Notes: generated from the sequence alone by a model not told the origin. Shown: positions 32,709 to 51,206, counted from the stretch's first letter. The stretch: DNA of 64,000 nt from Candidatus Eiseniibacteriota bacterium (GCA_963717935.1 CAVQXP010000004.1:704001-768000), one strand, 5' to 3'. A program made the numbers and translations.

Positions 32709-33995
32709 ATGACCGCCCCTGCGGTCTGGATCCTGGGCGGAATCCGCACGCCTTTCGCCAGGGCGGGGACGGCGCTCCGCCTCATGAGCGTCGTCGAGCT
32801 CGGGCGTCTGGCCGTGGGCGAGCTGCTGGCGCGCCACGAGTTGGATCCGGCGCGACTCGACGAGGTCATCCTGGGCAACTGCGCCCAGCCGGCCGAGGCC
32901 GCCAACGTCGCGCGCGTGACCGCCCTGCGCGCCGGCATCCCCGAGCGCGTGCCCGGACTGACCGTGCACCGCAACTGTGCCTCCGGCATGGAAGCCGTGG
33001 GGCTGGCCGCGGAGCGTATCCAGCTCGGGCGCGCGCAGCTCGTCCTGGCCGGCGGCATGGAATCCATGAGCCAGGTCCCGCTGCTGTTCCCGCCCGAATT
33101 CGGCGTCTGGCTCGAAGGCGTGACCCGGGCGAAACACCCGCTCGCGCGCCTGGGCGCGGCACTGCGCTTCCGGCCCGCGCTGCTGCGGCCGCGGCCCGCG
33201 TTGCTCGAGGCGCTGCACGACCCGGTGTGCGGGCTCGGCATGGGGGAGACCGCGGAGCTCCTGGCACGCGAGTTCGACCTGCGGCGCGAGCGCCAGGACG
33301 AGTTCGCGCTCCTGAGCCACCAGCGTGCGGTGGCGGCGCGCGAAAGGCTGCGCGAGGAGATCGTGCCGGTCTTCCCGCCGCCCACCTGCGAGCTGATGCG
33401 CGACGACGCGGGGCCGCGCGAGGACCAGACGCTCGAGCAACTGGCGCGACTTCGGCCTTGCTTCGACCGGCGCAACGGCACGGTCACCGTGGGCAACGCC
33501 TGCCCGGTCACCGATGGGGCGGTGGCCCTCCTGGTCGGTGGCGAGGAGGCCGCGCGTGACTGGCCCGTGCCGCCGCTGGGGCGGGTGCGGGCCTGGGCGG
33601 TCGCGGGGCTCGAACCGCGGCGCATGGGGCTCGGGCCGGTCCACGCCATCGCGCGCGTGCTCGACGAGACCGGGTTTTCGCTCGAGGATTTCGAACTGTT
33701 CGAGATCAACGAAGCCTTCGCCGTTCAGGTGCTGGCCTGTCTCGAGGCGGCCAGGTCCGTGCCGTTCGCGCGCGCCGAACTGGGCCGCGACCGGGCGCTG
33801 GGCGAGATCCCGCTCGAGCGGCTCAACGTGAACGGCGGGGCCATCGCGCTGGGGCACCCGGTGGGGGCGAGCGGGGCGCGGCTGCTGCTCACGCTGCTGC
33901 TCGAGATGCGCCGCCGCGGGGCGAAGCGCGGGCTCGCGGCGCTGTGCGTGGGTGGCGGACAGGGCGCTGCCTTCGTGCTGGAGCGTGACGGATGA
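32709..33995 (+). CDS. fadI: Acetyl-CoA C-acyltransferase (thiolase, FadA/FadI type)
   Basis: 'RNCASG', 'INEAFA', 'GGAIALGHPVGASG', 'LCVGGGQG'. Confidence 0.92.
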   Translation: MTAPAVWILGGIRTPFARAGTALRLMSVVELGRLAVGELLARHELDPARLDEVILGNCAQPAEAANVARVTALRAGIPERVPGLTVHRNCASGMEAVGLAAERIQLGRAQLVLAGGMESMSQVPLLFPPEFGVWLEGVTRAKHPLARLGAALRFRPALLRPRPALLEALHDPVCGLGMGETAELLAREFDLRRERQDEFALLSHQRAVAARERLREEIVPVFPPPTCELMRDDAGPREDQTLEQLARLRPCFDRRNGTVTVGNACPVTDGAVALLVGGEEAARDWPVPPLGRVRAWAVAGLEPRRMGLGPVHAIARVLDETGFSLEDFELFEINEAFAVQVLACLEAARSVPFARAELGRDRALGEIPLERLNVNGGAIALGHPVGASGARLLLTLLLEMRRRGAKRGLAALCVGGGQGAAFVLERDG

Positions 33996-36157
33996 GCGTG
34001 TTCCACGTCGAGTTCCTGCCGTCGGGTGTGCCGGGTCCGGAGGGGATCGCCCACCTCGTGATGGACGACCCCACACGGCGGGTGAACGTCATCGACGAGC
34101 AGGCGCTCGGGGACCTCGAGTCCGCGCTCGAGCTGCTCGAAGGCCGGCCGGACCTCGGCGGGCTGGTCGTGCGGAGCGGCAAGCCCGGCACCTTCGTCGC
34201 CGGCGCCGACGTGGACGCGATCGCCGCACTCACGGACCGCGCGCTGGCGCTGGCCCTGGTCCGGCGCGCGCAGGCGGCCTTCGCGCGCCTGGCCGCGCTG
34301 CCCTTCCCGACGGTCGCGGCCATCGACGGGCCCTGCCTGGGCGGGGGCACCGAGCTGGCGCTGGCCTGCCGCTCGCGCGTCGCCGCTCAGGAACCGCACA
34401 CGCGGATCGGGTTGCCCGAGGTCCCGCTCGGCATCATCCCGGGCTCCGGCGGAACCACGCGCCTGCCGGGACTCGTGGGGCTCTCGACCGCGCTGGACCT
34501 CATCCTCACGGGTCGCACGCTGGACGCGCGGGGCGCCGAACGCGCGGGGCTGGTCGAGCGCGCGGTGCCCGGCGTGTGGCTCATCGAGCACGCGCACCGG
34601 CGCCTGGCCGAACTGGCGGCGCGCGGGCGGAGCCACGGGCGCGCCGGCGTCCGCTGGCGGCCGCGGGGACTGCGCTCGTGGTTCATGGATGGAACGCCGT
34701 TCGGGCGGGGCCTGACGTTCGCTCGCGCGCGGGCGATGACGAAGGCGCGCACCGGCGGGCACTACCCGGCGGCGGACGCCGCGCTCAGCGTCCTGCACCA
34801 CGGCTTCGCCCAGCCCATCGAGGCTTCGCTGCGGCTCGAGGCCGAGTGGGTGAGCGACCTGATCGTCGGGCCGGTGTGCAAGAACCTGGTGCGCGGCTTC
34901 CGGCTCGCCGAGCGAGCGCGCAGGGAGTCGCTGCCCGGGATGGAGGAGGCAGCCCCCGTCGAGCGGCTCCAGGTCGTAGGTGCGGGGGCGATGGGCACCG
35001 GTGTCGCCGAACTCGCCAGCCGGCACGGGATCGAGGTGCGGCTGCGCGACACCGATCCGGCCGCGCTGGCGCGCGCGATGCGCGCGGTGCGCGCGCGCGT
35101 CGCCGAACGCTCGGGCCGGCCTGGGGCCGCGCGGCACGAGACCGAGGGGCAGCTCGCGCGCATCTTCCCCAGTCCGGATCTGGCCGGCCTGAAGCGCGCG
35201 GATCTCGCGATCGAGGCGGTGGTGGAGGATCTGGACGTCAAGCGCCGGGTGTTCGGCGAACTCGAGGTCCGCATGCGACCCGACGCGGTGCTGGCGACCA
35301 ACACCTCCTCGCTCTCCGTGGACGAGCTGGCCGCGGGGCTCGAGCGCCCGCAGCGCTTCGTCGGGATGCATTTCTTCAATCCGGTCCACCGCATGCCGCT
35401 GGTCGAGGTGGTGCGCGGCGCGAAGACGTCGGCAGTGGCGCTGGCCACGGCCGTCACGCTGGCGCGGCGGCTGGGCAGGACCCCGATCGTGGTGAACGAC
35501 GGACCCGGGTTCGTCGTGAACCGGGTGCTGACGCCCTATCTGCGGGAGGCGTTTCACCTGGTCGAGGATGGCTACCGCGTGGCCGACGTGGACGCGGCCA
35601 TGCGGGCCTTCGGCATGCCCAGGGGGCCCTTCGAGGTGATGGACGATGTGGGCCTCGGCGTCACCGCGAACGTGGCCGCGGTCCTGGGCCGGGCGTTCCC
35701 CGGGCGCGTCGCACCCGTGCCGCAACTCGACGCTCTGCTGAAGGCGGGGCTCCTGGGACGGAAGAGCGGCGCGGGGTTCTACCGTTACTGGAGTGGACGG
35801 CGCACGCTGGATCCGCTGGCCGCGCGGCTACTGCGTCCCGCGCGCGAGCGCCGACCCGCGAGCCTCGAGGTCCTCGCCGAGCGGATGACGCTCGCCATGG
35901 TGAACGAGGCCGCGCACTGCCTCGCCGATGGCGTGGTGGCGGACGCCGGGACGCTGGACCTGGCGCTGCTCTGCGGCGCCGGTTTCCCGCCCTACCGCGG
36001 CGGTCCGCTGCGCCACGCCGACGCGCTGGGACTCGCCAGGGTGGAAGCCCGGCTGACGGCGCTGCGCGCCGAGAAGGGCGAGCGCTTCAAGCCCGCGCCG
36101 CTCATCGAGGAACTCGCGGCCCGGGGCGGAACGTTCACGGAGCCGGCGAGCGGGTAG
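33992..36157 (+). CDS. fadJ: Fatty-acid oxidation complex alpha subunit (enoyl-CoA hydratase/3-hydroxyacyl-CoA dehydrogenase)
   Basis: 'FVAGAD', 'GGGTELALAC', 'LPEV', 'GAGAMG', 'ATNTSSL', 'HFFNPV', 'GRKSGAGFY'. Confidence 0.93.
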   Translation: MSVFHVEFLPSGVPGPEGIAHLVMDDPTRRVNVIDEQALGDLESALELLEGRPDLGGLVVRSGKPGTFVAGADVDAIAALTDRALALALVRRAQAAFARLAALPFPTVAAIDGPCLGGGTELALACRSRVAAQEPHTRIGLPEVPLGIIPGSGGTTRLPGLVGLSTALDLILTGRTLDARGAERAGLVERAVPGVWLIEHAHRRLAELAARGRSHGRAGVRWRPRGLRSWFMDGTPFGRGLTFARARAMTKARTGGHYPAADAALSVLHHGFAQPIEASLRLEAEWVSDLIVGPVCKNLVRGFRLAERARRESLPGMEEAAPVERLQVVGAGAMGTGVAELASRHGIEVRLRDTDPAALARAMRAVRARVAERSGRPGAARHETEGQLARIFPSPDLAGLKRADLAIEAVVEDLDVKRRVFGELEVRMRPDAVLATNTSSLSVDELAAGLERPQRFVGMHFFNPVHRMPLVEVVRGAKTSAVALATAVTLARRLGRTPIVVNDGPGFVVNRVLTPYLREAFHLVEDGYRVADVDAAMRAFGMPRGPFEVMDDVGLGVTANVAAVLGRAFPGRVAPVPQLDALLKAGLLGRKSGAGFYRYWSGRRTLDPLAARLLRPARERRPASLEVLAERMTLAMVNEAAHCLADGVVADAGTLDLALLCGAGFPPYRGGPLRHADALGLARVEARLTALRAEKGERFKPAPLIEELAARGGTFTEPASG

Positions 36158-36875: not shown

Positions 36876-38162
36876 ATGAGCACGAAGGGGTTCAATTCGT
36901 TCGAGATCGCCCAGGCCCAGTTCGACCAGGTCGCCGCACTGCTCGATCTGGACGCCGGGACGCGCGAGTTCCTGCGCTGGCCGATGCGGGAGTACGCCTT
37001 CAGCATCCCGGTGCGCATGGACGACGGGCACGTGAAGGTCTTCCGCGGCTTCCGCGTGCAGCACAACGACGCCCGCGGACCCTCGAAGGGTGGCATCCGC
37101 TTCCACCCGCAGGAGACCGTGGACACGGTGCGCGCCCTCTCCATGTGGATGACCTGGAAGTGCGCGGTGGTGGACATCCCGCTGGGCGGCGGCAAGGGCG
37201 GCGTGATCTGCGACCCGCACAACCTGAGTGCCCGCGAGCAGGAGCAGATCTGCCGTGGCTGGGTGCGGCAGCTGGTGCGCAACGTGGGTCCGGTCCAGGA
37301 CGTCCCGGCGCCCGACGTCATGACCAACGCGCAGCACATGCTGTGGATGCTCGACGAGTTCGAGGCGGTGCGCGGCGGCCGCTACCCCGGGTTCATCACC
37401 GGCAAGCCCGTCGGCCTGGGTGGCTCGCTGGGGCGCACCGAAGCGACCGGCTACGGCGTGGTCTTCACGCTGCGCGAGGCGCTGCGCGAGCACGGCGTCG
37501 CGGTCGAATCCACGCGCGCCAGCGTGCAGGGCTTCGGCAACGTGTCCCAGTACGCCATCCGGCTCTACGAGCAGCTCGGCGGCAAGGTCATCTGCGTGTC
37601 CTCGTGGGACCAGAAGGACCAGGCCTCGTATTCCTTCAAGCGGGTCTCCGGCGTGGACATGGACCAGCTGGTGGGCATCACCGACGTCTTCGGCGGCATC
37701 GACAAGGAGAAGGCGAAGAAGCTCGGCTACGAGGTGCTGCCGGGCGACGCGTGGATCGAGCAGCCGGTCGAGATCCTGATGCCCTGCGCGCTCGAGAACC
37801 AGATCACGCCCGTGACCGTGAAGAAGATCCACGCGGCCGTGAAGTTCGTGGCCGAGGGCGCCAATGGTCCCACCACCACCGAGGCCGACGCGGTGCTCAA
37901 GGACCGGGGGATCTACCTGATCCCGGACTTCCTGGCCAACGCGGGCGGCGTGACCTGCAGCTACTTCGAGCAGGTGCAGTGCAACATGAACTACTACTGG
38001 GACAAGGACGAGGTGCTGGGCAAGCTCGACAGCAAGATGACCTCGGCCTTCCTCGCGGTGAGCGAGCTGGCGCGCGAGCGCAAGCTGTACATGCGTGACG
38101 CCGCCTATGTCATCGCCATCAACCGCGTCGCCCAGGCCTGCAAGGACCGCGGCTGGGTGTGA
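36876..38162 (+). CDS. gdhA: Glutamate dehydrogenase (Glu/Leu/Phe/Val dehydrogenase family)
   Basis: RBS AGGAG; 'GPSKGGIRF', 'MTWK', 'GGGKGG', 'DVPAPD', 'QGFGNV', 'EGANGP', 'NAGGVTCSYFE'. Confidence 0.95.
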   Translation: MSTKGFNSFEIAQAQFDQVAALLDLDAGTREFLRWPMREYAFSIPVRMDDGHVKVFRGFRVQHNDARGPSKGGIRFHPQETVDTVRALSMWMTWKCAVVDIPLGGGKGGVICDPHNLSAREQEQICRGWVRQLVRNVGPVQDVPAPDVMTNAQHMLWMLDEFEAVRGGRYPGFITGKPVGLGGSLGRTEATGYGVVFTLREALREHGVAVESTRASVQGFGNVSQYAIRLYEQLGGKVICVSSWDQKDQASYSFKRVSGVDMDQLVGITDVFGGIDKEKAKKLGYEVLPGDAWIEQPVEILMPCALENQITPVTVKKIHAAVKFVAEGANGPTTTEADAVLKDRGIYLIPDFLANAGGVTCSYFEQVQCNMNYYWDKDEVLGKLDSKMTSAFLAVSELARERKLYMRDAAYVIAINRVAQACKDRGWV

Positions 38163-38214: not shown

Positions 38215-40017
38215 ATGAACAGCGACGCTACGGGCGGCCAGGGGTTGCCGCGGTTCGACCGCCGCTTCTTCGAGGGGCGGGAGACCTTCACCACCATCGG
38301 CTCGGGCGCTCTCGGGGGCAAGGCCTCGGGATTGCTCGCCGCGCGTGAAGCGCTGGCGGACCGGCCGGCGGCCCTGCGCCATGAGGACCTGGAGATCTCG
38401 GTCCCGACGCTCACCGTGATCACCACCAACGCGTTCGACCTGTTCCTCGAGCGTAACCGCCTCCACGAGCTGGTCTACTCGGGCTCCGACGACCGCCAGA
38501 TCGCGGCCGCGCTGCAGCGAGCGGAGCTTCCCACGGAGATCGTGGGCGACCTGTGGGCGCTCGTCCGGCGGGTCCACACGCCGCTGGCGGTGCGCTCTTC
38601 GAGCCTGCTCGAGGACGCGCTGGCGCACCCGTTCGCCGGCGTGTACGCGACCAAGATGATCCCCAACAACCCGCACGACCCCGAGACCCGCTTTCGCAAG
38701 CTGGTCGAGGCGGTCAAGTTCGTCTACGCCTCGACCTTCTTCCGCGCGGCGCGCACCTACGTGCGCGTGGCCGGCCGGAAGCCGGAGGAGGAGAAGATGG
38801 CGGTGATCGTGCAGGAGGTGGTGGGGCACCGGCACGGCCCGCGCTTCTACCCCGAGGTCGCGGGGGTGGCCCGCTCGTGGAACTTCTACCCGACGGGACA
38901 CGCGCAGCCGGCCGACGGTGTGCTGGACCTGGCGCTCGGTCTGGGCCGGACCATCGTGGACGGCGGGCGCGCGTGGACCTGCTCGCCCGCCCACCCGCGC
39001 TCGGTGCCGCCGTTCAACTCGGTGGGCCACATGATCGAGCAGAGCCAGAGCGAGTTCTGGGCGGTGAACATGGGCCCGCCTCCGGCGTACGACCCCACGA
39101 TCGAGACGGAATACCTGGTGCAGGCGGGCCTCGCCGACGCCGAGGCGGACGGGACGCTGGTCCACGTCGCCTCGACCTACGACCCCGACTCGGACCGCGT
39201 CGTCATGGGGGTGGGATCCAGCGGCCCGCGCATCGTGGATTTCGCGCCGATGCTGCGGCTGGCGCGGTGGCCGGTGATCGAGGCGGTGCGCGGCCTGCTC
39301 GCGCTCTTCGCCGCCCGCCTGGGCGCCCCCGTGGAGATCGAGTTCGCGCTCACCTTCCCCGACCCGTCTGCGAAGGGTGCCCGGCCTTCCCCCGGCGCCC
39401 CGGAGGGCCTCCCCGCCCGCCTGGGCTTCCTGCAGGTGCGGCCGATGCTGGTCAGCAGCCAGACGGTCGAGATCGGGGAGGATGAACTTGCCGGTCCGCG
39501 GGCCGTGGTGCGCTCCGAGCACGTCATGGGGAACGGGGTCATCGAGGGCCTCCGCGATGTCGTGTACGTGAAGCCCGAGGTCTTCGAGGCGCGCCATACG
39601 CCGGCGATCGCCGCGGAGGTGGACCGCCTGAACCAGGCGCTGGTCGAGGAGGGCCGGTCCTGCGTGCTGGTCGGCTTCGGCCGCTGGGGCAGCGCCGATC
39701 CCTGGCTGGGCATCCCGGTCGAGTGGGCCCAGATCGCGAGCGCACGCGTCATCGTCGAGGCGAGCCTGCCGGCCATGAACGTGGACATGAGCCAGGGCGC
39801 GCATTTCTTTCACAACCTGCTGAGCTTCCGCGTGGTCTACTTCTCCGTGCCGGGCCTCGACGCGTCGGGGATCGACTGGGAGTGGCTGCGCGGGCTCCCG
39901 GCCCGGCGGGAGACCGATTTCGTACGGCACGTGGAGACGCCGGCGCCCCTGCTCGTGAGGGTGGACGGCCGCCGGGGCCGGGGTGTGGTGCTGCGCGGCA
40001 TGGGGGGGGACGCATGA
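38215..40017 (+). CDS. PPDK_N (ATP-grasp dikinase-like) protein lacking the pyruvate-binding barrel
   Basis: 'LGGKASGL', 'LAVRSSSLLED', 'FAGVY', 'EIEFA', 'LQVRP', then 'GRWGS...SQGAHFF'. Confidence 0.88.
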   Translation: MNSDATGGQGLPRFDRRFFEGRETFTTIGSGALGGKASGLLAAREALADRPAALRHEDLEISVPTLTVITTNAFDLFLERNRLHELVYSGSDDRQIAAALQRAELPTEIVGDLWALVRRVHTPLAVRSSSLLEDALAHPFAGVYATKMIPNNPHDPETRFRKLVEAVKFVYASTFFRAARTYVRVAGRKPEEEKMAVIVQEVVGHRHGPRFYPEVAGVARSWNFYPTGHAQPADGVLDLALGLGRTIVDGGRAWTCSPAHPRSVPPFNSVGHMIEQSQSEFWAVNMGPPPAYDPTIETEYLVQAGLADAEADGTLVHVASTYDPDSDRVVMGVGSSGPRIVDFAPMLRLARWPVIEAVRGLLALFAARLGAPVEIEFALTFPDPSAKGARPSPGAPEGLPARLGFLQVRPMLVSSQTVEIGEDELAGPRAVVRSEHVMGNGVIEGLRDVVYVKPEVFEARHTPAIAAEVDRLNQALVEEGRSCVLVGFGRWGSADPWLGIPVEWAQIASARVIVEASLPAMNVDMSQGAHFFHNLLSFRVVYFSVPGLDASGIDWEWLRGLPARRETDFVRHVETPAPLLVRVDGRRGRGVVLRGMGGDA

Positions 40018-43000
40018 CCGAACAGGGGCCGATGGACGAGATCCTGAAGGCGTTGCAGGAACGGGCCAAGGAGCTCAACTGCCTCTACCGCATCGACGAG
40101 ATCGTGCACGACGTGGAGCGGCCGGTCGAGGATTTGCTGCGCGCGGTGGCCGAGGCGCTGCCGCAGGGCGTGCAGTACCCGGCGCACTGCGTGGCGCGCT
40201 GCGTGCTGCGCGATCTCGACGTGCGCGGCGCGGACTTCGTCGAGACCCCGTGGAAGCTCTCGGCGCCCATCGTCATCTCGAACCGGCGGGTCGGCGAGCT
40301 GTGCATCTACTACACGCAGCAGATGCCCAGGGCCGACGAGGGGCCGTTCCTCAAGGAGGAGCGCAGGCTCATCGATGCGGCCGCCGACCGTGTCGCCCGG
40401 GCCGTCCAGCACCGCGAGCTGACCGAGGTGTTCGGGCGCACGCAGATCGGCCACTCCGCGGTGGACGCCGTGCTCCGCCAGGACTGGAGCATCATCCTCG
40501 ACCTGCTGCGCCGCACCGACCAGAACCTGTACAACCAGGTCGCGCGCAAGATGCTGAACCACCTGTCCTGGAGCGGCATCGAGGAAGCCAAGGAGCTGCT
40601 CCTCAGCATCGCCGGCCCGGAGGAGGCGTGGGAGCCCGGTGACGAGAATCGCCCGACGCGGCGCAACGCGCCCAAGGACTTCGAGGTCATCAGCGCCGAG
40701 ACCTTTGAGATCGCGGCTGCCCACCTGAGCGAGCAGGAGCTGCTCAGCAGCATCCAGACCTGGATCAAGGAGGACCGGCTCAACTTCCTGGTGCTTGCGC
40801 TCGAGAGCAGCAACACCTCGCTGCCCGAGATCGCCAACGCGCTGGAGCGCTACCACCACACGGGCCTGGACGTGCGCGAGCTGTCGCCCGCCATGCACCT
40901 GGGTCTCAAGGTCTCGCTCATCCGGCGCCTGCTCACCGACAACCTCGAGTTCATCAACACCTGCCGGCCGTGGGTGGAGATCGATGACTTCGTGGACCTC
41001 GTCAGCCACACCATCCTGCTGCCACATAGCCACGGCCGGGTGGGCGGCAAGGCCAGCGGGCTCCTGCTGGCGCGGCACGTCCTGCGGCGCTCTCCCGAGC
41101 ACCGCGAGCTGCTGGACGGGGTCAAGGTGCCCCGGACCTGGTACGTGCCCTCGGACGGTCTCCTCCAGTTCCTCGCCTACAACAACCTTGACGACGTCTA
41201 CAACTGGAAGTACCGCGACTTGGACGAGATCCGGCAGGAATACCCGCACATGCTCCAGGTCTTCAAGAGCTCGCGTTTCCCGGCCGAGTTCGTGCAGGGG
41301 CTCTCGACCGCGCTCGACGACCTCGGCGACCGGCCGCTCATCGTGCGCAGCTCGAGCCTGCTCGAGGACCGCGCGGGCGCGGCCTTCTCGGGGAAGTACA
41401 AGAGCCTGTTCCTCGCGAACCAGGGCCGCAAGGCCGACCGGCTGGCGGCCCTGCTGGACGCCATCGCCGAGGTCTACGGCTCGGTCTTCGGCCCGGATCC
41501 TCTCCAGTACCGCGCGGAGCGCGGGTTGCTCGAGCATCACGAAGAGATGGGCATCATGATCCAGGAGGTGGTGGGCATGCGCGTGGGCCGCTACTTCCTG
41601 CCTTCGTTCGCGGGCGTCGGCTTCAGCAACAACGAGCTGCGCTGGTCGCCCCGCATCCGGCGCGACGACGGGTTGCTGCGCCTGGTGCCGGGTCTCGGCA
41701 CGCGCGCGGTGGACCGTCTGGCCGATGACTACCCGATCCTGGTCGCGCCGGGGCAGCCAGGGCTGCGCGTCAACGTCACCCCGGAGGAGGTCTGCCGCTA
41801 CTCGCCGCGCAAGGTCGACGTCATCAATCTGGAGACCAACTCCTTCGAGACCGTGGACCGCCACACCCTGCTGAAAGAAGTCGGCGGACACCTCCCCAGG
41901 CTCGCCCAGATCGTCTCGCTCTACGAGCACGACATGCTGCGGCGCCCCGGCGGCCTCGACCTGCGCTTCAACGAGGACAACCTGATCTTCACCTTCGAGG
42001 GCCTGTTGACGAACACCGACTTCGTGCCGCGCATGCAGGCCGTCCTCAAGGTCCTGCGCGAGGCGCAGGGCGTACCGGTGGACATCGAGTTCGCCTCGAA
42101 CGGAGACGAACTCTACCTGCTGCAGTGCCGGCCCCAGAGTCACGCGCCGGACACCGCGCCGGCACCCATCCCGCGCGACCTGCCGCAGGAGCGCGTGCTG
42201 TTCTCCGCCAACCGCTATGTCTCGAACGGCGCCGTGCCCGACATCACGCACATCGTCTACGTGGACCCCGATGGCTACAGCCGGCTGGGCGACCTGAACG
42301 AGTTGCGCGACGTGAGCCGCGCCGTCAGCAGTCTCAACAAGATCCTGCCCAAGCGCCAGTTCGTCCTCATGGGACCGGGGCGCTGGGGCAGCCGCGGCGA
42401 TGTCAAGCTGGGCGTGAGCGTGACGTATTCCGACATCAACAACACCGCGATGCTGATCGAGGTCGCGCGCAAGAAGGGCAACTACGTCCCGGATCTCTCG
42501 TTCGGCACGCACTTCTTCCAGGACCTCATCGAGTCAGGGATCCGCTACCTGCCGCTCTACCCCGACGATCCGGGCGTGGCCTTCAACGAGCCGTTCTTCC
42601 GCAAGTCCGAGAACGTCCTGGCCCGGCTGCTGCCGGACCTCGCGTACCTCGCGGACACCGTGCGGGTGATCGACGTGCCGGAGGCCGCGGGTGGCCAGGT
42701 GCTGCGCGTGCTCATGAACGCCGACCTCGAGGAGGCCGTGGGCGTGCTGGCCCCGCCGGGCGTGGCCGTGGTCACGTCGGCAGCGCTGCCGAGCCCCACG
42801 GCGCGGCCGGCGGAGGACCACTGGCGCTGGCGGTTGCGCATGGCGCAGAAGGTCGCCGCGGACCTCGATCCCGCGCGCTTCGGCGTCCACGCTTTCTACG
42901 TCTTCGGCAGCACGAAGAACGCCTCGGCCGGGCCCGGCAGCGACATCGACGTCATCATCCACTTCAGGGGCACGCCGGAGCAGCGCCGGGAGCTGGAACT

Positions 43001-43193
43001 CTGGCTCGAGGGCTGGAGCCTGTGCCTTGCGGAGATGAACTTCCTGCGCACCGGCTACCACAGCGAGGGCCTGCTGGACGTGCACCTCGTCACCGACGAA
43101 GACCTCGTGCGGCAGACCAGCTACGCGGCCAAGATCGGGGCCATCACGGACGCCGCGCGTCCGCTCATGCTGGGAGGCCCGGCGGCGGGATGA
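40014..43193 (+). CDS. Multidomain protein: GAF-like N-terminus, PPDK_N dikinase-like core, C-terminal nucleotidyltransferase
   Basis: 'ERAKELNCLY...GPFLKEERRLI'; 'VGGKASG', 'VRSSSLLED', 'DIEFA', 'LQCRP', 'GRWGS', 'SFGTHFF'; 'VFGSTKNASAGPGSDIDVII...LDVH'. Confidence 0.88.
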   Translation: MTEQGPMDEILKALQERAKELNCLYRIDEIVHDVERPVEDLLRAVAEALPQGVQYPAHCVARCVLRDLDVRGADFVETPWKLSAPIVISNRRVGELCIYYTQQMPRADEGPFLKEERRLIDAAADRVARAVQHRELTEVFGRTQIGHSAVDAVLRQDWSIILDLLRRTDQNLYNQVARKMLNHLSWSGIEEAKELLLSIAGPEEAWEPGDENRPTRRNAPKDFEVISAETFEIAAAHLSEQELLSSIQTWIKEDRLNFLVLALESSNTSLPEIANALERYHHTGLDVRELSPAMHLGLKVSLIRRLLTDNLEFINTCRPWVEIDDFVDLVSHTILLPHSHGRVGGKASGLLLARHVLRRSPEHRELLDGVKVPRTWYVPSDGLLQFLAYNNLDDVYNWKYRDLDEIRQEYPHMLQVFKSSRFPAEFVQGLSTALDDLGDRPLIVRSSSLLEDRAGAAFSGKYKSLFLANQGRKADRLAALLDAIAEVYGSVFGPDPLQYRAERGLLEHHEEMGIMIQEVVGMRVGRYFLPSFAGVGFSNNELRWSPRIRRDDGLLRLVPGLGTRAVDRLADDYPILVAPGQPGLRVNVTPEEVCRYSPRKVDVINLETNSFETVDRHTLLKEVGGHLPRLAQIVSLYEHDMLRRPGGLDLRFNEDNLIFTFEGLLTNTDFVPRMQAVLKVLREAQGVPVDIEFASNGDELYLLQCRPQSHAPDTAPAPIPRDLPQERVLFSANRYVSNGAVPDITHIVYVDPDGYSRLGDLNELRDVSRAVSSLNKILPKRQFVLMGPGRWGSRGDVKLGVSVTYSDINNTAMLIEVARKKGNYVPDLSFGTHFFQDLIESGIRYLPLYPDDPGVAFNEPFFRKSENVLARLLPDLAYLADTVRVIDVPEAAGGQVLRVLMNADLEEAVGVLAPPGVAVVTSAALPSPTARPAEDHWRWRLRMAQKVAADLDPARFGVHAFYVFGSTKNASAGPGSDIDVIIHFRGTPEQRRELELWLEGWSLCLAEMNFLRTGYHSEGLLDVHLVTDEDLVRQTSYAAKIGAITDAARPLMLGGPAAG

Positions 43194-44043
43194 GCGCGCG
43201 GGTCGCCTGCCCGGGCGACTCGAGATCGAAGCGCACCAGCGCCAGCTCGGGGCCGTCGTGGGCGGCCGAGAGACAGTGCGTGCGCCCGAGGCGGTCGCGC
43301 CAATCGCCGGTGAGCCGCGCTGACTCGTGCACGTGGCCGTGGAGCGAGAGCAGCGGCTGGCGCGCCTCGAGGAAGCGTCGGACGGCGATGCTCCCCACGT
43401 GCGGGTCGAGCGGGACGTGGTCCACGGTCTGGCCGTCGAGCGCCGCGCGGTCGAGCCGCGTGTCGTAGGGCGGCGCGTGGAAGAGGAAGACCCCCCGGGC
43501 GAGGTCCCCGGCGCCGGCGAGCCGCTCGAGGTCTTCGCGGATCGTGGCGTTGCGTGCCTCGCCCTCGTGCAGCGGGACCGTGCGCCAGCCCTCCTCGGGT
43601 GAGGTGCAGCCGGGGTCCACGTGGCGCGAGACGTCGTAGCGCTCCCAGTCCTTGAGCGCGAAGGGCGTGGGGGGCACGCAGGCGTAGCCGAAGACCGTCC
43701 AGTCGCCGAACGGGATGCGCCGCCCGTGCGCGTATTCCCAGACGCCCGTCGCGGCGGCCTCGATCACGCTCTCCTCCTCGGCGCGCCCGTCGTCGTTGCC
43801 GAGGATGAGGAAGACCCGCGGTGCCGCGGCGCCGAGGTCCTCGCGCACGCGCGTGAAGCCGGGTGCGAGGACCTCCCGCACGAAGTCGCCGTCCGCGGCG
43901 CCGACCGCCGCGGCGAGGCCGGAGGGTAGGAGGTCTCCGCCCAGGAACACGGCGGCCGGACGTTCGGCGCGGATCACCGTGAACAGCGCCGCGTAACGCC
44001 CGGCCGCGCCGTGCAGGTCGGCGACGAAGAGGCAGCGGGTCAT
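43165..44043 (-). CDS. Calcineurin-like metallophosphoesterase
   Basis: 'ADLHG', 'GGDL', 'LGNDD', 'HAPP', 'HGHVHE'. Confidence 0.9.
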   Translation of the reverse strand: MTRCLFVADLHGAAGRYAALFTVIRAERPAAVFLGGDLLPSGLAAAVGAADGDFVREVLAPGFTRVREDLGAAAPRVFLILGNDDGRAEEESVIEAAATGVWEYAHGRRIPFGDWTVFGYACVPPTPFALKDWERYDVSRHVDPGCTSPEEGWRTVPLHEGEARNATIREDLERLAGAGDLARGVFLFHAPPYDTRLDRAALDGQTVDHVPLDPHVGSIAVRRFLEARQPLLSLHGHVHESARLTGDWRDRLGRTHCLSAAHDGPELALVRFDLESPGQATRALIPPPGLPA

Positions 44044-50387: not shown

Positions 50388-51206
50388 CTACTCGGCCGTC
50401 CCCGCGGCCGCCTCGCCGTCCGCCAGGGGCGCGGACGGTGACACCTCCTCCTCGGGACGCAGGTGGAAGATGCGAGACAGTTCGCTGCGCAGCGCACCAC
50501 TGTCGAGGTGCTGCTTGAGCGTCCCGCGGTAGGCGACCGAGATGCCGCCGCTCTCCTCGCTCACCACGACGATGGCGGCATCGGACTCCTCGGAGAGGCC
50601 CAGGGCCGCGCGATGCCGCGTGCCGAGGGCGAACGCCAGCTTGAGGTCGGACGAGAGCGGCAGGATGCAGGAGGCCGCGACCACCGCGTCCTCGCGCAGG
50701 ATGACCGCGCCGTCGTGGAGCGGCGAGCCGGGCGAGAACAGCGTCACCAGCAGCTCGGCCGTGACCTTGGCGTCCAGCCGCGTGCCGGTCTCGACGAAGT
50801 TCCTCAGGCCGGTGTTGCGTTCGATCACCATGAGCGCCCCCTGGCGCTTCTCGCCCAGGGTCTCGGCCGCTCGCACCACCTCGCCCAGGACGCCGTAGGA
50901 GTCGCCGCGCAGGAACGAGCGGAAGTAGCGCGTGCGCCCGAACTGGGCGAGCACGTGCCGCAGCTCGGGCTGGAAGAGGATGACGAAGGCGATCAGCCAG
51001 ATGGTCTTGACGCTGTCCACGATCCACTTGACCGCGATCAGGTCGAAGGCGCGGGCGAACAGCCCCACGAGCACGATGAGCAGCAGCCCGACGTACATCT
51101 GTCCGGAGCGCGTGCCCTTCACCAGCACGAGGAGCCGGTAGAAGAGCAGCGCGACGAGGAAGATGTCGAGCAGGTCGAGCAGCCAGATCTGGTGAACGGG
51201 CGTCAT
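50388..51206 (-). CDS. cdaA: Diadenylate cyclase CdaA
   Basis: Three N-terminal TM helices, 'FQPELR', 'LHDGAV', 'GTRHRAA', 'VVSEE'. Confidence 0.95.
   Translation of the reverse strand: MTPVHQIWLLDLLDIFLVALLFYRLLVLVKGTRSGQMYVGLLLIVLVGLFARAFDLIAVKWIVDSVKTIWLIAFVILFQPELRHVLAQFGRTRYFRSFLRGDSYGVLGEVVRAAETLGEKRQGALMVIERNTGLRNFVETGTRLDAKVTAELLVTLFSPGSPLHDGAVILREDAVVAASCILPLSSDLKLAFALGTRHRAALGLSEESDAAIVVVSEESGGISVAYRGTLKQHLDSGALRSELSRIFHLRPEEEVSPSAPLADGEAAAGTAE

Follow-up and report, generated by a model that had tools for sequence, protein, structure and literature searches.

We analysed a 64,000-nucleotide stretch of a Candidatus Eiseniibacteriota genome (GCA_963717935.1, CAVQXP010000004.1:704001-768000; G+C ~70%), called the window here, with positions counted from its first letter. 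On its plus strand lies a cluster encoding a glutamate dehydrogenase (GDH), a dikinase-like protein (paralog A) and a larger relative of that protein (protein B), and a metallophosphoesterase gene converges on the end of B. A preliminary description of this DNA had proposed that B closes with a Pol-beta-type nucleotidyltransferase (NTase) domain, possibly acting on GDH as a GlnE-like switch. We find that the C-terminus of B is a genuine minimal Pol-beta NTase with its catalytic residues intact, that the metallophosphoesterase is its most constant partner, and that the same NTase occurs in a mini form joined directly to a GAF-like sensor. The genes and domains are these (aa, amino acids):

36876-38162, plus strand: gdh, encoding a 428-aa glutamate dehydrogenase, first gene of the cluster (Pfam ELFV_dehydrog and ELFV_dehydrog_N)
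38215-40017, plus strand: paralog A, 600 aa, PPDK_N ATP-grasp and His-bearing domain (PF01326, E 5.6e-33)
40014-43193, plus strand: protein B, 1059 aa, with GAF-like sensor, helical region, PPDK_N ATP-grasp, His-bearing domain, linker and NTase
40014-40448, plus strand: GAF-like N-terminal sensor of B, with an ER-KEL-CLY motif (weak Pfam GAF, Foldseek)
41037-42179, plus strand: PPDK_N ATP-grasp (nucleotide-binding) domain of B (Pfam PF01326, residues 343-723, E 7.7e-54)
42180-42764, plus strand: middle His-bearing domain of B (GPGRWGSRGD and SFGTHFFQDL invariant in 44 sequences; His codon 42510-42512)
42765-42815 (about), plus strand: disordered Pro/Ala-rich linker
42816-43190, plus strand: minimal Pol-beta NTase domain (Pfam PF01909 and PF18765, motif conservation, MNT-like fold), with G-S at 42906-42911, D-x-D at 42942-42950 and the third Asp, that of LLDV, at 43077-43079
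43165-44043, minus strand: metallophosphoesterase (Pfam PF00149), convergent with B, with 29 bases shared at the 3' end of B

Protein B ends in a conserved Pol-beta nucleotidyltransferase

Translation of positions 42810-43193 on the plus strand returned exactly the peptide from which the domain had been proposed, with FYVFGSTKNASAGPGSDIDVII and LLDVHLV, and a stop codon at 43191-43193. The piece is in frame with a long open reading frame (ORF) at 39723-43193. Because an ATG at 40014 overlaps the stop codon of paralog A as ATGA, we took B to start there. The Pro/Ala linker said to precede the domain is likewise real: it is the sole stretch with a predicted local distance difference test score (pLDDT) below 50 in a model of the C-terminal 337 residues (model residues 197-211; 920-935 in the full-length model).

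Pfam placed the domain in two NTase families above their cut-offs. On the 127-aa piece, PF01909 (NTP_transf_2) scored 30.2 bits against a cut-off of 21 (E 5.9e-7) and PF18765 (Polbeta) 28.6 bits against 26.9; PF01909 also scored 26.0 bits on the whole of B and matched all 44 aligned family members at E<=0.1. The family signature, hG[GS]-x9-13-Dh[DE]h with a third carboxylate on a later strand, is present as G-S-x10-D-I-D plus the Asp of LLDV, and the tail SYAAKIGA-TDAARPL is conserved. The C-terminal model, built with a 49-row alignment (mean pLDDT 87.1), has the alpha-beta-alpha-beta NTase fold.

To gauge conservation, we collected relatives of B. A search of 5.8 billion protein clusters, with 7999 candidates scored, gave 7232 relatives at E<=0.001, of which the best 120 are 53-93% identical and mostly 1047-1079 aa long (98-100% query coverage); five are shorter (844-969 aa, coverage 79-91%) and eight measure 1629-1648 aa. 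In a MAFFT alignment of the C-termini of these 120, the G, the S and the first Asp are present in every sequence. At the second Asp position 117 have Asp and three have Asn (P0017, P0085, P0121), at the third 119 have Asp and P0097 has His, and a Lys or Arg follows G-S in 117. A scan of one genome per species returned at least 594 relatives, and our locus counts use the best 80 of these. The NTase domain is encoded in all 80, with G-S...D-x-D in 79 (the remaining one reads G-G) and the third Asp in 80. These loci span more than ten phyla, the groups named being Acidobacteriota, Eisenbacteria, Planctomycetota, Aminicenantes, Calditrichia, Ignavibacteria/Melioribacter, Zixibacteria, Krumholzibacteria, Myxococcota, Cloacimonadota, Fermentibacteria, Longimicrobiales and others; the closest among the matches listed, 91% identical, is a Candidatus Eisenbacteria metagenome-assembled genome. 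Loss of the motif and absence of the domain from homologs, either of which would have spoken against the preliminary description, are both contradicted by the 120 homologs and 80 loci, and the fusion to the dikinase-like protein holds in all the close and distant homologs examined. By its residues, the NTase of B is predicted to be an active enzyme.

The nearest folds are MNT antitoxins and aminoglycoside adenylyltransferases

Foldseek against the PDB ranked 2rff (E 6.9e-4, probability 1.0) and the MNT antitoxin 8xeh_E closest. After them came the adenylyltransferases AAD(9), AadA and ANT(4'), together with MNT chains from three complexes with AMPylated HEPN (7ae9, 7bxo and 7aer). A Foldseek-independent search gave 8xeh_E (Z 7.8, root-mean-square deviation 3.2, 102 aligned), 1wot (Z 7.6) and 2rff (Z 7.0), with DrrA at Z 5.5. 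Neither GlnE nor GlnD is among the listed structural matches. Pfam detected no GlnE module (PF03710/PF08335) in B at E<=0.01 or in the 44 family members at E<=0.1, and no HD or ACT domain, the GlnD layout, in either set. In fold and sequence the NTase is closer to MNT antitoxins and to aminoglycoside adenylyltransferases than to GlnE or GlnD; the comparison bears out the NTase identity given in the preliminary description, and not a closeness to GlnE and GlnD, which it named as sharing the signature.

As first described, there is no HEPN partner: no HEPN family matched any of the 15 ORFs scanned at 26.4-51.2 kb, and the NTase gene is flanked by the PPDK_N paralog and the metallophosphoesterase. 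The NCBIfam model MntA_antitoxin (NF047752) scored 19 bits on B against a cut-off of 60. PADLOC gave a weak PDC-S09 match on the NTase (23 bits) and PDC-S10 on the phosphoesterase (14.5 bits); with weak matches only, a defence-system reading of the cluster was rejected.

The remainder of B is a sensor joined to a dikinase-like module

At the N-terminus of B, Pfam GAF matches weakly in 26 of 44 family members, and Foldseek aligned the full-length model (mean pLDDT 78.7) with the GAF domains 6ob8 and 3p01 at probability 1.0. ESM Atlas, queried with the N-terminal 340 residues, returned the protein's own kin only. The ATP-grasp domain retains the motifs R-S-S-x-x-E-D and F-[AS]-G, and its Foldseek matches are rifampin phosphotransferase (5hv3, E 8.6e-13), phosphoenolpyruvate (PEP) synthase (2ols, E 6.1e-9) and HpeI (9goj).

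The invariant His of the middle domain sits, in the model, at the N-terminus of a helix. Structural matches to this domain are weak: 2e28 (Z 5.5), a DRTGG domain (Z 5.4), residues 758-867 of 5hv1, the rifampin phosphotransferase His domain (Z 5.1), and 2fm4, the phosphoryl-carrier domain of pyruvate phosphate dikinase (PPDK; Z 4.9). The 2e28 match is the C-terminal domain of a Bacillus pyruvate kinase, residues 475-587, which we take to be a swivel-type domain. Sequence methods lent no support: Pfam detected no PEP-utilizers domain (PF00391) in the middle domains of B or A even at E 10, and an hhalign comparison between the middle-domain alignment (44 sequences) and 22 PEP-utilizers segments of related genomes reached a probability of 0.5% (two loci of an unpublished genome, G014, were left out of this set and one false regular-expression match was dropped). 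For these reasons we call the domain His-bearing; it may be a divergent phosphohistidine carrier. Pfam found no PEP/pyruvate TIM barrel (PF02896) in B, and the NCBIfam PEP synthase and RPH models scored 19-58 bits on it against cut-offs of 598-1700.

Paralog A carries neither sensor nor NTase. It is 28% identical to B over 541 residues (E 3e-32), and both contain the GRWGS and G-x-HFF motifs. A precedent for such proteins is VadK (Rv1127c), reported to be a truncated pyruvate phosphate dikinase that regulates methylcitrate-cycle enzymes, autophosphorylates on His, pulls down metabolic enzymes and makes no PEP (PMC13400623). By analogy, the dikinase-like parts of A and B may be regulators and not metabolic dikinases.

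gdh, paralog A and the phosphoesterase recur beside B

We next mapped the neighbours of B by tblastn of the window proteins against the 80 loci. Upstream context could be read in 60 loci, those where the N-terminus of B is complete and 3.4 kb or more precedes it. In 58 of them gdh lies upstream on the same strand within 3.5 kb, and in one more it is divergent; A directly adjoins B in 55. Some lineages run from gdh straight to B with A missing (L030, L035, L051, L079), and in one 1634-aa relative (P0090) an A protein, 49% identical to ours, is fused to B. The cluster GDH is itself unusually well conserved: proteins from different phyla are 70-77% identical, and an alignment of 26 sequences has a mean column identity of 81%. 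In the window its ATG at 36876 is preceded by an AGGAGA site.

Downstream, 68 loci extend at least 1.3 kb beyond B, and 48 have the phosphoesterase within 3 kb, 45 convergent and three co-directional. The metal-ligand motifs of the enzyme are visible in the translation and invariant in 25 orthologs. Its solved relatives are distant: phmmer with the phosphoesterase found no match among PDB sequences, a 25-sequence profile reached only aq_1956 (E 8.3e-4) and YfcE (E 0.066), both uncharacterised, and ESM Atlas returned own kin or generic Metallophos clusters only. None of these matches places the enzyme in a functional subfamily. We regard the enzyme as a candidate eraser or hydrolase partner of the NTase.

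All three of gdh, A and B are covered by RNA-library contigs that, being 90-95% alike, come from relatives. Two of these contigs run across the gdh-A junction, from the stop of one gene into the start of the next (X16 records 3 and 4), and one joins gdh directly to B (X18 record 17), as in the relatives without A; sequencing-run holders were kept as contigs, with shares of at most 0.38. These contigs are a hint that the cluster genes are expressed in relatives, and a hint only, because such contigs cannot prove a single transcript or exclude DNA carry-over. A complex prediction for GDH and the C-terminal 337 residues of B, run without controls, scored 0.00 against a mark of 0.32 and bears neither way.

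Two further sets of genes lie in the surroundings. Directly upstream of gdh (32709-36157, plus strand) are a thiolase and a FadB-like enoyl-CoA hydratase/3-hydroxyacyl-CoA dehydrogenase, an arrangement that only the closest relative (L003) shares among the loci. At 50388-51206 on the minus strand, 7 kb downstream of the cluster, is a gene for a CdaA-type diadenylate cyclase (DAC and CdaA_N; c-di-AMP synthesis).

A mini form pairs the sensor and NTase with the same phosphoesterase

We then searched with the NTase piece alone. Against 1.84 billion representatives, phmmer returned 392 clusters at E<=0.001, 300 of them at E<=1e-10 and 93 at E<=1e-30. Among the best 150 of the 392, 13 are at least 999 aa long, 26 are 260-330 aa, and 111 are short, being fragments or possible stand-alone NTases. 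Several Met-initiated proteins of 127-155 aa (P0148, P0166, P0192, P0221) have a few leader residues and then the HW-WR helix, and may be such stand-alone enzymes.

The 26 mid-sized proteins define the mini form. They open with B's ER-KEL-CLY motif, and alignments show the GAF-like domain of B running straight into the NTase, the dikinase part being absent. Conserved in them are the HW-WR helix, EGWS-CLAE-N and the SFA-IG tail. We treat these proteins as whole genes because they lie on contigs of up to 86 kb.

A metagenome scan with the mini-form alignment returned 80 loci, 67 of which encode the mini form. Where at least 900 bases lie downstream (37 loci), an ortholog of the window's phosphoesterase, 47-55% identical to it, is present in 19, 17 of them with the two genes co-oriented and no more than 60 bases apart. 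Pairing is concentrated in the subgroup at least 37% identical to P0190, with 18 of 19 loci. Pfam confirmed NTP_transf_2/Polbeta together with Metallophos in the mini pairs. The remaining neighbours are unrelated (guaA, chorismate synthase, peptidases and others), and an ATP-grasp relative is near in a single locus of the 67, L147. At that metagenome locus (L147:3540-12827) a mini GAF-NTase and the phosphoesterase are accompanied by two giant PPDK_N proteins, of which one has a receiver domain, and by a Crp-type regulator (cNMP_binding and HTH_Crp_2) whose N-terminus matches the B-type GAF-like domain.

Because the unit exists without the dikinase part and mostly without a dehydrogenase neighbour, we take sensor, NTase and phosphoesterase to be the conserved core, probably as a writer/eraser pair. 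It follows too, from the rarity of dehydrogenase genes near the mini form, that the NTase's own target need not be GDH.

GDH clade, NTase and phosphoesterase co-occur within the phylum

Co-occurrence was counted in 101 genomes of the phylum; the unpublished G014 has none of the three genes, so its omission changes only that class. The GDH clade was set at 59% identity or more to the window's protein, the GDHs of other genomes reaching at most 51%. The NTase is present in 33 genomes and the special GDH clade in 33 (one partial, G104), with both in 31. The two genomes with the NTase and without this GDH (G024, G025) have frames of ~260 aa, the mini form. Two have the GDH clade without an NTase match (G027, G065), G065 showing a GAF-like match only. 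All 27 genomes with an ortholog of the phosphoesterase (E<=1e-45, at least 56% identical) belong to the 33 that carry the NTase; the 68 NTase-negative genomes have none. Across 16 families the pattern is patchy.

In G027 (L193:1510-5603), gdh is followed by a B homolog, 56% identical, that ends near residue 925, before the NTase. This genome has no paralog A and no orthologous phosphoesterase, only a 37% identical paralog of the latter.

The host genome (3.0 Mb in 5 contigs, 93% complete) encodes a glutamine synthetase, and B holds its only PF01909 domain. No GlnE matched in the 93% that is present, and the only P-II match is sub-threshold (21.4 bits) with an internal stop; the organism may lack the classical cascade of glutamine synthetase adenylylation. 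About 930 kb away lies another ELFV dehydrogenase gene, with ~32% identity to the cluster GDH; it is followed by a PPDK_N protein of ~1000 aa with weak receiver-domain and weak DUF5752 matches (L112:5057-9582, G000:C4). This dehydrogenase appears frame-shifted here, with its N-terminal part in another frame; in L001, L016, L018, L023 and L024 the second pair adjoins the main cluster.

A nucleotidylation switch may act on the GDH module

Taken together, these results suggest a model in which a sensor-NTase unit has the NTase as its output domain. In the window and across more than ten phyla that unit carries a dikinase-like insert and, accompanied by the sensor-less paralog A, would be dedicated to the special GDH clade encoded upstream. 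Metabolite binding to the GAF-like domain would gate transfer of a nucleoside monophosphate (NMP), most probably AMP, from a nucleoside triphosphate to a protein hydroxyl, the acceptor being either GDH itself or an A/B complex that controls GDH, and the metallophosphoesterase would take the mark off. The outcome would be a reversible covalent switch, working like GlnE on glutamine synthetase or MntA on HepT, to which the ATP-grasp/His module would probably add a layer of phosphoryl transfer or binding, like VadK. We propose a protein hydroxyl because the nearest solved relatives of this size, the MNTs, AMPylate protein, and prefer a protein acceptor because the small-molecule relatives carry an extra substrate domain lacking here. 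GDH is favoured as the target because of the gene cluster.

We hold a writer/eraser nucleotidylation switch on the GDH module to be a real possibility, if a little short of an even chance. Direct transfer of the NMP to GDH is a doubtful proposition, since the mini form can work without an adjacent dehydrogenase gene. The GlnE-like switch for GDH first proposed therefore survives in part: the intact NTase and the strong link to gdh (58 of 60 loci, 31 of 33 genomes) speak for it, and the MNT-like fold and absence of a GlnE or GlnD family match in B do not. The phosphoesterase also follows the mini form, mostly in loci with no gdh close by; this agrees with a writer/eraser switch and at the same time allows a target that is not GDH. 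Rather unlikely, in our estimate, is a broader version in which GAF-like sensor, NTase and phosphoesterase form an ancient self-contained reversible switch that, in more than ten phyla, captured the dikinase module and became dedicated to the special GDH, yielding a second covalent-modification system for ammonium metabolism, independent of GlnE and P-II, that would respond to a metabolite and leave on GDH an NMP mark and possibly a phosphoryl mark as well.

Several observations weigh against the switch on GDH. An ELFV dehydrogenase is near the mini form in only 4 of 67 loci, and in 1 of the 21 loci of at least 8 kb. The phosphoesterase is missing within 3 kb in 20 of the 68 full-length loci, from six of the 33 NTase-positive genomes, and from all but one of 18 loci in the second mini-form subgroup. 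The co-occurrence counts overstate independence, because genomes within a phylum are kin. D-x-D has become D-x-N in 3 of the 120 homologs. Finally, the structural Z-scores of 7-8 fall in a range that the search tool calls common, which is why the domain call draws on Pfam, motif conservation and fold together.

The alternative that survives best has the NTase acting in cis. It would NMPylate B or A, for instance on the His-bearing domain or the conserved C-terminal tail, and thereby set the dikinase-like module, which would in turn control GDH by phosphotransfer or binding, as proposed for VadK, with the phosphoesterase resetting the regulator. The flexible linker tethers the NTase to the His-bearing domain, A and B are translationally coupled and sometimes fused, and VadK is reported to autophosphorylate and to pull down metabolic enzymes (PMC13400623). 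The 63 of 67 mini loci without a dehydrogenase neighbour would likewise allow self-modification or modification of a protein encoded elsewhere. However, the mini form retains the NTase, and usually the phosphoesterase too, although it offers no ATP-grasp or His domain that could be regulated. We consider cis action unlikely, while giving it serious weight.

A less probable alternative is that the NTase makes, and the phosphoesterase destroys, a small nucleotide-containing molecule, perhaps a signal, perhaps an adenylylated relative of glutamate or 2-oxoglutarate, with the GAF-like domain gating synthesis. Such a pathway would suit an NTase-phosphoesterase pair that is self-contained in variable neighbourhoods, a phosphoesterase whose nearest solved relatives (aq_1956, YfcE) are uncharacterised, and structural neighbours, AAD(9), AadA, ANT(4') and LinB, that adenylylate small molecules. 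Against this, the ~125-residue domain lacks the helical substrate-binding domain of the antibiotic adenylyltransferases, its top structural matches are protein-modifying MNTs, and no receptor or effector gene is conserved beside it.

Improbable, in our judgement, is a non-catalytic relic that serves nucleotide binding or dimerisation only, leaving the cluster to work through the ATP-grasp/His module. MNT-type domains do dimerise, G027 retains gdh and a B lacking the NTase, and the D-x-N variants point the same way. Yet 117-120 of the 120 homologs, in a family spread over more than ten phyla, retain the three metal-binding carboxylates, the G-S turn and the Lys or Arg, and the domain persists in the mini form, which has no ATP-grasp.

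That the NTase is a captured MNT antitoxin from a HEPN/MNT toxin-antitoxin or defence module, unrelated to GDH, is very improbable: its closest folds are MNT antitoxins and it shows weak MntA_antitoxin and PDC-S09 matches, but the MntA score is far under the cut-off, no HEPN gene is adjacent or among the ORFs scanned, and the chromosomal context with gdh is fixed across phyla.

A writer/eraser switch on the GDH module would matter for several reasons. GDH stands at the junction of carbon and nitrogen metabolism, and the textbook covalent switch of bacterial nitrogen assimilation targets glutamine synthetase, through GlnE, GlnD and P-II. Here a distinct, uncharacterised enzyme set (sensor, NTase, dikinase-like pair and phosphoesterase) is tied to one GDH clade, in organisms many of which are abundant in soils and sediments. 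If the NTase does write a removable nucleotide mark, a central enzyme would gain a new regulatory layer, and genes now routinely mis-annotated as pyruvate, water dikinase would gain a function. The mini form offers a small two-protein system for an easy bench test. Our literature search, whose coverage excluded subscription journals and supplements, found no paper on this gene cluster; new here are the description of the mini form and of its link with the phosphoesterase, and the counts of how GDH clade, NTase and phosphoesterase co-occur.

Comparison with known nucleotidyltransferases and dikinases

Among known enzymes, the MNTs are the closest counterpart of the domain. They share its fold, its size and the G-S...D-x-D active site with a third Asp, and are reported to be protein-AMPylating (PMC7641770). 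In HEPN-MNT type VII systems, MntA antitoxins AMPylate the HepT toxin. Unlike an MNT, the NTase of B has no HEPN partner, is fused to a 930-residue sensor/dikinase-like protein and is accompanied by a phosphoesterase. It also has a signature of its own, made up of the HW-WR helix, EGWS-CLAE-N and the C-terminal SYAAKIG tail. The N-terminal NTase domains of ANT(4'), AadA, AAD(9) and LinB superpose on it as well (Z 5.7-6.2, Foldseek probability 0.96-1.0), but these antibiotic nucleotidyltransferases, with chains of 250-267 residues, continue into a C-terminal helical substrate-binding domain that B's NTase does not have.

The rest of B has a different set of relatives. It shares the ATP-grasp domain with the PEP-utilising dikinases rifampin phosphotransferase, PEP synthase and PPDK; unlike them it has neither the PEP/pyruvate TIM barrel nor the rifampin-binding domain, and the dikinase families have no NTase. 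VadK, by its described layout, pairs an ATP-binding dikinase domain with a His domain and lacks a PEP/pyruvate domain. The middle domains of A and B show no sequence similarity to PEP-utilizers, and the part of the report available to us describes neither a GAF-like sensor nor an NTase in it (PMC13400623).

With GlnE and GlnD the likeness is one of function, by analogy: a Pol-beta-type NTase that would switch nitrogen assimilation by reversible covalent modification, in step with the sensing of metabolites. GlnE is the glutamine synthetase adenylyltransferase and GlnD the P-II uridylyltransferase. GlnE is built of tandem NTase-plus-helical modules where B has a single minimal domain of ~125 aa, and the HD and ACT domains of GlnD are absent from B. 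Removal of the mark, left in GlnE and GlnD to a second NTase or an HD domain, would here fall to a separate metallophosphoesterase, and the presumed target would be GDH in place of glutamine synthetase or P-II.

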